A stretch of DNA of 64,000 nt from a virus (Duplodnaviria; Caudoviricetes): IMG/VR virus record IMGVR_UViG_3300032038_000018, positions 32,001-96,000 of that record. One strand, 5' to 3'. The notes beneath the pieces were generated by a model. That model ran no database searches. It had not been told where the DNA came from and saw only the letters and a program-made list of their open reading frames with translations. Positions 24,082 to 26,362 of this stretch are shown here, piece by piece (position 1 is the first letter of the stretch; each line of letters begins with the position of its first letter). The position numbers were made by a program, and so were the translations under genes.

Positions 24082-24705
24082 ATGAATATAGCAATTTGCG
24101 ATAATTGCAAATCAGTTCACCCGATAGGCGACGATCACAAACCAATAAGAACATGCAATTGCGATGCAGATATTTGGGAATGCGATGAAGAAATATATCC
24201 TCTTCTCAGAATGCTTTGGGATAAAGGATACACTACCAAATTTTCATGCGCCGGACATTCTTTTTCTGAGAAATATGAAGAGGATGAATTAGCTGGTGTA
24301 TCGGATTACCCCAACTGCGATGTATACATAATGCTTGATGCTAGTAAAATCAAGATTAATGACATAACGAAATACAAATATGGAAGCGCGTTCATAGAGC
24401 GTAATTCCATAGAGAAGATATATGTAGACGCAATGAAAATGCGTGGTATCGAGTTGCCAGAAGAGTATGTATTCGATGTCGATGAACCGATATTCGTAAG
24501 CTACATTTACGATTTATATGACTCAAAGGAGGAAGCTGATAAAGAACTCGACTGGCTCAGAACAGCGCCCCCATTCGATTATCGCATAAGCGTATTATAC
24601 GAAGGGCATAACAAATGCCGTAACTATATCCAGCGCTTCATGAAACTTCTTGAAATGAGAAGTGACATGGCAAAACTGGTAGATTTGTTACCGATTAACA
24701 AGTGA
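24082..24705 (+). CDS. Hypothetical protein with GY-T-xx-SC-x-GH motif
   Basis: DEEIYPLLRMLWDKGYTTKFSCAGH; AGGAG RBS. Confidence 0.6.
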   Translation: MNIAICDNCKSVHPIGDDHKPIRTCNCDADIWECDEEIYPLLRMLWDKGYTTKFSCAGHSFSEKYEEDELAGVSDYPNCDVYIMLDASKIKINDITKYKYGSAFIERNSIEKIYVDAMKMRGIELPEEYVFDVDEPIFVSYIYDLYDSKEEADKELDWLRTAPPFDYRISVLYEGHNKCRNYIQRFMKLLEMRSDMAKLVDLLPINK

Positions 24706-24745
24706 GAAAATATCCACTCTCTTAGAGAGTGGATATTAATTTTTT

Positions 24746-24821
24746 TGGCTCCCACAGCTGGACTCGAACCAGCGACCCTTTGATTAACAGTCAAATGCTC
24801 TACCGACTGAGCTATATGGGA
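24746..24821 (-). tRNA. tRNA-Asn(GTT)
   Basis: TCCCATA..TAGCTCAGTCGGTAGAGCA, TTTGA-CTGTTAA-TCAAA, GGTTCGAGTCC, encoded CCA. Confidence 0.95.
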
Positions 24822-24964
24822 TTATAATGACAGTTTTTAATGTGTTTCATGATATCTCGGATAACTGTCAACCTCAACCACCTAATTTTTTAATTGGTAA
24901 GCTACCCAATATAGTGGTGCCGGTGACGGGATTCGAACCCGTAAGGATTTCTCCGAGGGATTTT

Positions 24965-25646
24965 CGTACCACTATATCTTTCGATACCTAATATAATAAA
25001 TATATTAGTTTGTGGTCTGGAATCAATCTTCGTCTGTTCTAGACGGGACATGTATATTCTCTACGCACTCACCCTAAGGTGATTGGCACGGTATTGCCAT
25101 TGGGAAAGGTTTCACCGTTTAGTGTCCATTCATCGTAAGTATCCCTACTTACATGCTCGCGCCCACCGAATTTTTCCAAAGTTTCTTCACTTCTTTTAAT
25201 CTATCTTCTAATTCATAGTAAAAGATATAATCACCACCAGCTTTAGCTGAACATGATTTGGAACAGGTTAAATACCGCGGTCTGTTTCTATTAAGATCAG
25301 CATAAAACCTAGCCCACATGTGATACGTTATTGTAAATGGCTTACCACAAATCATGCATATTTCTTCAGTGGTTTGATATCTAAGTGCATGCTCTCTTTG
25401 GTGTTCACCATGTTTAACTACTTCCAGATTTGATAAGTCATTATTAGATGGATCACCATCTATATGATGAACATCTTCATTCGGCTCTAATAGTCTGCCC
25501 AATTTCTCTTCCATTAGAATTCGAGGATATGAACCAAAATGATTTTTGCCATTTTCGTCTTTATAATAATAACGAACACGGCCGTCTTTACAATTATAAG
25601 TTCTAATATTTTTCATATTTATTATCCTCTCTGGATTTTTATTCTC
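24965..25646 (-). mobile_element. Group I intron (682 nt) in the tRNA-Leu anticodon
   Basis: Follows U, ends in G; P3 GGACA/TGTCC; P AAACGGTGAAACC, Q GGCAATACCGTGCC, R GTAGAGAATATAC, S GAAGATTGATTCC. Confidence 0.88.
25149..25616 (-). CDS. Intron-encoded HNH homing endonuclease
   Basis: RILMEEKLGR..EDVHHIDGDPSNNDLSNL..H...H; C-terminal CxxC..CxxxC; GAGG RBS; lies inside the intron. Confidence 0.88.
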   Translation of the reverse strand: MKNIRTYNCKDGRVRYYYKDENGKNHFGSYPRILMEEKLGRLLEPNEDVHHIDGDPSNNDLSNLEVVKHGEHQREHALRYQTTEEICMICGKPFTITYHMWARFYADLNRNRPRYLTCSKSCSAKAGGDYIFYYELEDRLKEVKKLWKNSVGASM

Positions 25647-25783
25647 AAGTCCCTTTTGTATTCCAATTCCAACACACCGGCTTATTACGCGAGTTTTGTT
25701 TCATAACATGAATGGAGTCGAACCACACAATGATGGATTTTTACCATCTTACTCGCGGGACATCCGATGCCCTCATTTTTTAA

Positions 25784-26362
25784 TTATTCATCTGTCATAG
25801 GAATTGCCCTAGTGCAAGGTCTTACTGTAGCAGATGATTTAGTAACATCTCTTACTATATCAGCAACGATCTTGTGAGCATTGCCACAGTAATCTGATGT
25901 ATCATCATTGAAGAATGTGATGATTTCTCTCTCAAATACTGCAAAATCAATCTCGGGAAGACCGGGAAGAGGCTCCTCAGATACGATTGTTGAGAACAGA
26001 GGATTACCCTCAAATGCAGTAGTCCAATCTTCTGCAGTTGCAGGAGTATCATCTGCTTCATAGTTAACGTTTATCTTAAGAGTTATGTTACCCATAGGAA
26101 CTACAGTCTTAAGAATCTTGTTAAGAGCTGCAACTTTAGCAACATCATTGGAAGTAACATTGAAAGAGTAAACACCGTTACCCTCTTCTGTGATATGATC
26201 GTCAACTGTTACGTTGGCATCATCCTTGAACAGATTCCATACTTCCTTATGATAGGTTTCCCAAGGTGCAGAAAGACCAACGGTCTCTTTCTTGTCAACC
26301 TTCTTCTTAAGGTTTCTTGCTACTGACATATTAATGCCAGTATATGACTTTCTAGTTGCCAT
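25784..26362 (-). CDS. Hypothetical protein within the tRNA cluster
   Basis: AAGGAGG RBS before MATRK; the longer start would overlap tRNA-Gln. Confidence 0.75.
   Translation of the reverse strand: MATRKSYTGINMSVARNLKKKVDKKETVGLSAPWETYHKEVWNLFKDDANVTVDDHITEEGNGVYSFNVTSNDVAKVAALNKILKTVVPMGNITLKINVNYEADDTPATAEDWTTAFEGNPLFSTIVSEEPLPGLPEIDFAVFEREIITFFNDDTSDYCGNAHKIVADIVRDVTKSSATVRPCTRAIPMTDE

Follow-up and report, generated by a model that had tools for sequence, protein, structure and literature searches.

The stretch of DNA analysed here (the window, 64,000 nucleotides, nt) comprises bases 32001-96000 of a 128-kb IMG/VR virus record, itself estimated to be about half complete. At 24915-25681 on the minus strand it holds a tRNA-Leu(UAA) gene interrupted by an insert that is, judged by its covarying core, a group I intron carrying a gene for an HNH endonuclease. 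The guanine-cytosine content of the window is 34.8%, and its products include RNA-polymerase subunits of the beta type in split form, a DNA polymerase, an NAD-dependent ligase, GroEL and a tail sheath, a gene set that points to a jumbo-type phage. The stretch is present in bovine gut metagenomes, with shares of 0.96 in run X1 and 0.68 in run X2; the statement on habitat is limited to ruminant gut metagenomes holding the stretch and is based on these two runs, those with small shares being left unused.

With introns allowed, ARAGORN calls a tRNA-Leu(taa) gene at exactly the coordinates given by the initial annotation, which had claimed a tRNA-Leu(UAA) split at U|AA. The G with which that annotation had the intron end is found at 24965, and its reading frame of 155 amino acids (aa) near the intron 5' end does run into the ribozyme, with the last four codons and the stop overlapping the guide (25156-25159) and the 5' strand of P2 (25146-25152). 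The intron lies between anticodon-loop nucleotides 35 and 36, i.e. between U34 and A35. The joined exons, GGGACTT|AAAATCCC, form a full type-II cloverleaf with an encoded CCA end and share 84-92% identity with tRNA-Leu(UAA) genes that stand uninterrupted in other viral contigs (blastn). With a U preceding the intron, a G as its last base and the pattern CUU/n...g/AAAA at this position of tRNA-Leu(UAA), the insertion falls into class Leu.3Ug as defined by Williams 2020 (bioRxiv 10.1101/2020.01.27.920355).

Four tRNAs are encoded in the 128 kb (Asn, Leu, Gln and Lys), and the split gene is the only tRNA-Leu among them. Ordinary ARAGORN and Rfam scans of the window return tRNA-Asn, tRNA-Gln and tRNA-Lys only, so that by such standard scans the phage appears to be without any tRNA-Leu. 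Upstream of the split gene, at a distance of 20 nt, lies a poor tRNA-like stretch (25702-25781, minus strand). ARAGORN reports it only once the threshold is lowered, as tRNA-?(Leu), with an 'anticodon' of two bases and an acceptor stem that contains mismatches, and it may represent a tRNA gene in decay.

Searches with the locus itself were empty: blastn gave no match in GenBank phages or in plasmids, and scans of IMG/VR with the exact 3' junction, with peptides of the HNH protein and with the P4-P5 block gave none either. As scans of IMG/VR for syntenic relatives through the neighbouring 192-aa protein and the ligase were likewise negative, no near-identical intron-less sister phage was found.

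Table 1. Features of the split tRNA-Leu(UAA) gene, in order of transcription (positions in the window; L201 is a second contig with a split tRNA-Leu gene and R1 a covariance model, both described in the text)
Feature	Position	Strand	Basis
tRNA-Leu(UAA) 5' exon, nt 1-35, ending in U34	25647-25681	-	ARAGORN intron mode; blastn against intact tRNA-Leu genes of phages
Group I intron of 682 nt, G1 through terminal G (omega-G)	24965-25646	-	ARAGORN and comparative structure
GAGG ribosome-binding site, 9 nt before the HNH ATG	25626-25629	-	AGAGAGGATA conserved in L201
HNH homing-endonuclease gene, 155 aa, in the P1 loop	25149-25616	-	Pfam, PHROG, homologues, structure model
Internal guide sequence, CGAG: exon CUU is paired by GAG, with U.G at the splice site, and intron G1 by C	25156-25159	-	R1 alignment with UGAG, the guide in the Nostoc trnL intron; family conservation
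P1, exon CUU and intron G1 paired to CGAG; guide downstream of the reading frame			
P2 hairpin, 7 base pairs, GGGA loop; holds the TAA stop codon of the HNH gene	25135-25152	-	Compensatory changes
P3 5' strand GGACA	25123-25127	-	Pairs with 25046-25050; family covariation outside the model
J3/4, AAA			
P4 ACGGU/ACCGU enclosing P5 CC/GG; J4/5 AAA, J5/4 CAAU	25088-25118	-	Compensatory changes, family alignment
P6 hairpin UCACC/GGUGA	25069-25082	-	Compensatory changes, family alignment
P7 5' strand G(A)GAAU, bulged A	25056-25061	-	Pairs with 25019-25023
P3 3' strand UGUCC, P3/P7 pseudoknot	25046-25050	-	L201 comparison, family P3 test
P8 hairpin CGUCU/AGACG	25031-25045	-	3 compensatory changes against L201; family alignment
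J8/7 AAGAUUG and P7 3' strand AUUCC	25019-25030	-	L201 comparison, family alignment
P9 ACCAC/GUGGU around a variable hairpin (24988-25008) and a hairpin with a GAAA tetraloop (24975-24986)	24968-25016	-	Alignments
Intron 3' end, AC and then the terminal G			
tRNA-Leu(UAA) 3' exon, A35 to the encoded CCA, 50 nt	24915-24964	-	ARAGORN

Covariation in the ribozyme core

The initial annotation had read group I core elements in the insert and proposed an Rfam search as a check. This search, once run, was negative: Intron_gpI (RF00028) matches the intron neither at its gathering score nor at E<=10, a 300-nt slice included. The structure was therefore derived by sequence comparison, which does bring out the claimed core, through compensatory changes and through a model match to cyanobacterial tRNA introns.

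The closest comparison is with L201, an independent 205-kb metagenome contig in which, according to ARAGORN, a 686-nt intron occupies the same site of a tRNA-Leu(taa) gene; the HNH protein of L201 is 59% identical to that of the window. All 44 proposed pairs form in both introns, with six double compensatory changes (one each in P2, P5 and P6 and three in P8), one single change and no broken pair. Each of the 13 substitutions in paired columns retains pairing, and sliding the partner strand by 1-3 columns lowers the pairing to 32-41%. The two ribozymes are 79% identical over a global alignment and 88% in aligned columns, compared to 69% for the exons and 66% for the open reading frame (ORF).

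These data bear on the idea that the insert is a decaying remnant, with a dead tRNA gene and an inactive ribozyme and nuclease, which we consider very improbable. The failure of the Rfam model to recognise the ribozyme would fit decay; however, all helices are intact and have stayed paired through every substitution relative to L201, the ribozyme is more conserved than the exons, the exons fold as a perfect cloverleaf, and the ORF is intact, with a ribosome-binding site and invariant catalytic and zinc residues.

A covariance model, R1, was built from the window and L201 ribozymes, omitting P3 because it forms a pseudoknot. Searched against a 7.5-Mb Nostoc genome, R1 gives exactly one match at E<=10, with 59.7 bits over the full model length. 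This match falls within a tRNA-Met(CAU) gene having a 244-nt intron (Nostoc metagenome-assembled genome, L365/L368, G001:C99:103253-103480), which corresponds to the location of the group I intron of cyanobacterial tRNA-fMet that PMC3984707 cites. In a three-way alignment of window, L201 and Nostoc tRNA-fMet introns, fitted to the model, 15 pairs are changed on both sides and 99% of the cells are paired; the window and Nostoc tRNA-fMet introns also have the AGACCACAAAC motif of the P9 region in common. With filters off, R1 also aligns, more weakly, to the Nostoc trnL(UAA) intron (23.9 bits; E 1.7e-5 with 6.5 kb searched), the guide UGAG of that intron falling on the CGAG of the window. By model score, the cyanobacterial tRNA-fMet intron is thus closer to the ribozyme than the tRNA-Leu intron is. 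Rfam Intron_gpI scores the Nostoc trnL(UAA) intron at 78.4 bits and the Nostoc tRNA-fMet intron at 47.4 bits, under the gathering score of 50 bits, so that routine Rfam annotation would miss the latter.

The run common to the phage and Nostoc introns (TCCAGACCACAAAC, a spacer, GAAAG, TAGT) was used as a pattern to scan IMG/VR for a wider family and yielded at least 117 stretches. Among the matches listed, to which all counts for this family refer, ARAGORN finds an intron-split tRNA across the motif at 103 of 118 motif sites. tRNA-Leu(UAA) accounts for 66 of the 103; the remainder are called as Arg, Met, other Leu and further types, and a part of these non-Leu(UAA) calls may be boundary miscalls. 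The introns are mostly about 200 nt long, and 22 exceed 400 nt. R1 matches 104 places, corresponding to 80 distinct sequences; the nearest ribozyme relative is L415, with 139.8 bits. In the 80-row alignment, 95.1% of the cells are paired, compared to 75.2% with shuffled partners and at most 42% after sliding, and 34 of the 39 model pairs have changes on both sides. P3 provides an unbiased test since it is absent from R1: at least 5 contiguous base pairs form in 71 of the 80 rows, with 61 different 5' strands, whereas shuffling gives a mean of 25 rows and a maximum of 32. In P7, the fourth pair (210/327) is A-U in the window and L201 and C-G in 75 rows, a two-sided change, and the G-C pairs on either side of the bulged A (206/330 and 208/329) are invariant, so that the helix is predicted to bind guanosine.

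The splice-site elements follow the same pattern. GAG occupies the guide position in all 31 distinct tRNA-Leu members, and the first intron base and the base before GAG form a canonical combination in 28 of the 31 (A-U in 18, G.U in 5, U.G in 4 and G-C in one, the present window). The family members likewise end in G. Taken together, the covariation identifies the insert as a group I intron, probably of the bacterial tRNA-intron type (IC3-like).

In three of the viral contigs (L432, L389 and L444), two or three separate R1 matches lie within a few kb of each other; some phages thus carry several intron-split tRNA genes side by side.

Two earlier candidates for parts of the core were discarded. 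A first model, in which GGACA/UGUCC was taken as P4 and ACCAC/GUGGU as P7, was rejected because it left no room for the 3' strand of P3 and for P8; these two helices are now P3 and P9. The GAG in AGAGAGG (25626-25632) was tried as the guide; it is without pairing neighbours and corresponds to the ribosome-binding site. As a side observation, the window combines the GGGA loop of P2 with CU:AG in P8, and L201 combines GGAA with CC:GG, which would fit the loop-receptor rule; with two sequences, this pattern was not counted as evidence.

The HNH gene and the settings of its relatives

The HNH reading frame starts 30 nt into the intron and, since the guide lies 3' of it, sits in the P1 loop. The protein matches Pfam HNH_3 with 42.9 bits (cut-off 24.8) as well as several PHROG HNH families, and has 96 homologues at 40-93% identity. 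Residues D48, H50, H51, N59, N63 and H72, together with the four cysteines C87, C90, C118 and C122, are invariant in 36 homologues. Some homologues read through into the peptide LNGETFPNGNTVPN, which in the window is encoded by the non-coding stretch past the stop codon; this was the first sign of a conserved RNA downstream of the HNH gene.

No PDB chain matches the protein by sequence. The AlphaFold model has a mean pLDDT (predicted local distance difference test) of 88, and its best structural match is I-HmuI (PDB 1u3e), with a Foldseek probability of 0.97 and a Z-score of 7.4 over 76 residues (root-mean-square deviation 3.3, 22% identity). The next-best Z is 5.2, and the match to I-HmuI is a modest one that covers the N-terminal half only (residues 1-78). 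The C-terminal half consists of a four-cysteine module and subsequent helices, and no match to a solved structure was obtained for it.

The region around the start codon has two further features. The stretch 25614-25625 (ATAATAAATATG), which includes the start codon, shows complementarity along its whole length to one arm of the P9a hairpin and to its loop (24993-25004, minus strand). It was considered as a core pairing and dismissed, because the 12-nt complementarity is absent from L201; it could hide the HNH start codon in the folded precursor, or it may be chance in an AT-rich sequence. A sigma-70-like site (TTGAGA, 16 nt, GATAAT; 10 of 12 matches) lies at 25621-25648 on the minus strand, spanning the 5' splice site before the HNH start. 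In a promoter and terminator scan of the region the counts, those of sigma-70-like sites included, are at chance level.

The relatives of the nuclease are found in a recurrent setting. In L203, L122, L123, L124 and L362 (GenBank MT835544), a full-length relative occupies the position immediately upstream of an intact tRNA-Leu(UAA) gene, on the same strand. In the cultured Salmonella phage PVP-SE1 (L361, NC_016071.1, 66022-66360), an unannotated ORF with 36% identity precedes an intact tRNA-Leu(UAA) of a tRNA cluster by about 70 nt; some records of related Salmonella phages annotate this type of ORF as an HNH endonuclease and others omit it. Immediate adjacency to an intact tRNA-Leu(UAA) gene thus holds for six of about nine full-length free-standing relatives. 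Others reside within tRNA-Leu(UAA) introns, in L201 and, among the matches listed, in L398, L415, L424, L469 and L474. As its relatives are found in or beside tRNA-Leu(UAA) genes, that gene is the likely target of the nuclease. In L121 and L363, HNH relatives are not beside trnL(UAA).

Other long introns of the family, among the matches listed, carry unrelated ORFs in the same P1 loop. In the other long tRNA-Leu(UAA) introns of this set, the longest ORF is mostly in the 5' part and on the sense strand, with three on the opposite strand. A further contig, L202 (AUXO014979582.1), has two tRNA-like pieces (500-600 and 780-850), each with acceptor and T arms and without an anticodon arm, after an HNH gene that is 53% identical; ARAGORN gives no call on them.

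An alternative is a true group I ribozyme whose HNH gene is a lodger: its protein would not be a homing enzyme for the intron-less trnL site but would cut elsewhere, for example at other sites of the tRNA cluster or in competitor and host DNA generally, or would act as a maturase (splicing helper). The nearest fold, I-HmuI, is a nickase that cuts intron-plus and intron-minus DNA alike. The unrelated ORFs in the same loop make P1 appear as a general landing pad, and the relatives in L121 and L363 are away from trnL(UAA). Such a role for the HNH protein is nevertheless unlikely, as the free-standing relatives just upstream of intact tRNA-Leu(UAA) genes and the six more within tRNA-Leu(UAA) introns are hard to explain without a target there.

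Proposed splicing and homing, and the points against them

Taken together, these data support the reading of the insert as a group I intron of the bacterial tRNA-intron type (IC3-like) that is mobile, lies between U34 and A35 in a phage tRNA-Leu(UAA) gene and carries in its P1 loop an HNH gene that would promote its homing; we regard this reading as highly probable. On comparative sequence evidence, the element is real and intact, with a structure shown by covariation, and self-splicing, homing and the nuclease target are predicted from it. The mobility proposed by the initial annotation gains indirect support from the intact nuclease gene, from the relatives in or beside tRNA-Leu(UAA) genes and from a ribozyme that is more conserved than its host exons.

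In the mechanism that we propose, the tRNA cluster would be transcribed and the ribozyme from P2 to P9 (24965-25152) would fold, with the guide CGAG forming P1 together with exon CUU and the first intron base. Free guanosine bound in P7 would attack after U34, and the terminal G would then occupy P7. The exons, held by the anticodon stem, would be joined into an 85-nt tRNA-Leu(UAA) with the junction GGGACUU|AAAAUCCC. As the split gene is the only tRNA-Leu in the 128 kb, the phage would have a need for this splicing. The HNH protein would be made from its own GAGG site and would cut or nick the intron-less tRNA-Leu(UAA) genes of co-infecting relatives, after which repair would copy the intron together with its gene. 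Because the end of the ORF overlaps the guide and P2, translation of the nuclease and the splicing fold should be mutually exclusive on a given transcript.

Excision of the insert by proteins, through RNase P/Z-type trimming followed by an RNA ligase, is extremely improbable. The tRNA-like pieces without an anticodon arm in L202 would be in line with it, but the ends of the insert are not tRNA-like in fold, and the insert contains a complete covarying group I core with a guide and a terminal G.

Contigs of four public runs were compared with 24700-25900; within the intron, coverage by the RNA runs is low, and the DNA runs are gapped, so that uncovered parts are given no weight. A 151-nt contig from RNA library X21 corresponds to 24868-24964 without mismatch and departs from the genome precisely at the 3' splice site. 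Run X2, of DNA, has one contig that spans the site without mismatch and another (146 nt, 4 mismatches) that stops at 24964. The break in X21 fits spliced RNA and that in X2 fits an intron-less allele, which is only a hint.

Several points weigh against a self-splicing, homing intron. No exon-exon joint is listed among the contigs of the four runs, and the contigs ending at 24964 could reflect an intron-less DNA allele. P1 is a long-range pairing of only 4 base pairs across a loop of about 500 nt. The pattern used to scan IMG/VR fixed the 3' strand of P7 and the 5' strand of P9, so that the family does not independently support these helices, and the three-way and family alignments were both fitted to R1. 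Finally, the Rfam group I model finds no match; this is weak counter-evidence, because the Nostoc tRNA-fMet intron is also under the cut-off and the Intron_gpI seed contains no bacterial sequence (Williams 2020, bioRxiv 10.1101/2020.01.27.920355).

A more far-reaching proposal, which we put forward tentatively and hold to be somewhat doubtful, is that intron and HNH protein together form a phage-versus-phage weapon centred on one tRNA gene: it would cut the intron-less copies of co-infecting phages, and perhaps of the host, while the intron would render its own copy immune and be carried along by the repair. The initial annotation, too, had put forward that the nuclease might cut intron-less trnL of host or competitor. 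If so, the family would preserve every stage in the assembly of a mobile intron, namely a free nuclease beside the gene, a bare 200-nt intron and a nuclease in the P1 loop, with different nuclease genes exchanged in that loop.

Comparison with known tRNA introns and homing systems

The window, together with its roughly 100 relatives, shows a compact group I ribozyme of the tRNA type to be common in phage tRNA genes. Of the family copies among the matches listed, about one in five has an insert of more than 400 nt, long enough for a gene, and mostly with an ORF in the P1 loop. The locus offers a small natural pair of ribozyme and endonuclease that is open to bench experiments, an HNH enzyme that is likely to be specific for a very conserved target of 15-20 base pairs, and a series of forms bearing on the way in which mobile introns arise from bare introns and free endonuclease genes. 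It is also a case for annotation, as the split tRNA-Leu escapes standard tRNA and Rfam scans. We found no published description of endonuclease-bearing group I introns in phage tRNA genes, within an incomplete coverage of the literature. According to a 2014 review (PMC3984707), all phage introns then known were in protein-coding genes, although tRNA genes are numerous in phages, and in 2019 the tRNA introns of Lak megaphages were presented as the first in phage tRNAs (PMC6784885).

The cyanobacterial trnL(UAA) intron shares with the window intron the gene, the site between U34 and A35, the U at -1 and the 3' G. It also has the same kind of P1, in which CUU and one further base pair with NGAG just before P2, as well as J3/4 AAA, J5/4 CAAU, the junction CCAA and the bulged A in P7. 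The window intron differs in being in a phage and in having a 155-aa HNH gene in its P1 loop; the Nostoc copy, with 286 nt, is too short for one. P7 is GACU/AGUC in the cyanobacterial intron and GAAU/AUUC in the window, the P9 regions are unlike, and the Rfam model detects the Nostoc copy while missing the window intron. Pre-tRNA introns of Azoarcus and Synechococcus are called group IC3 in papers listed by PMC3984707.

The cyanobacterial tRNA-fMet(CAU) intron is the best R1 match outside phages and has the AGACCACAAAC run and the GAAA hairpin in P9. PMC3984707, citing Bonocora and Shub 2001, gives the Synechocystis tRNA-fMet intron as encoding I-Ssp6803I. It is thus an anticodon-loop tRNA intron able to carry a homing endonuclease, as in the window, although in another tRNA, with its site before the anticodon, after U33 (ARAGORN), and in a bacterium rather than a phage. 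I-Ssp6803I is a PD-(D/E)xK enzyme and not an HNH enzyme. I-HmuI, from the group I intron within Bacillus phage SPO1's DNA-polymerase gene, resembles the window protein in being encoded by a phage intron and in the fold of its N-terminal sheet and HNH part; its host gene is protein-coding, compared to a tRNA gene here, and the four-cysteine C-terminal module is a feature of the window protein.

Among phage systems, the introns that Devoto et al. 2019 (PMC6784885) describe from Lak megaphages are similar in interrupting phage tRNA genes. They are unclassified, and one may itself encode a tRNA, whereas the window intron is demonstrably a group I intron with a homing-endonuclease gene. The free HNH relatives beside intact tRNA-Leu(UAA) genes in phage tRNA clusters recall the tandems of collaborative homing (PMC3984707) and SegB in the tRNA cluster of T4 (PMC2330249), the latter being a GIY-YIG enzyme in contrast to the HNH enzyme of the window. 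In the model of PMC3984707, a stage with a free-standing endonuclease and an intron precedes the entry of the endonuclease gene into the intron. Unlike in the collaborative tandems, the gene in the window is already inside the intron, and the context of its relatives fits the route that this model draws from a free-standing endonuclease to a composite mobile intron.

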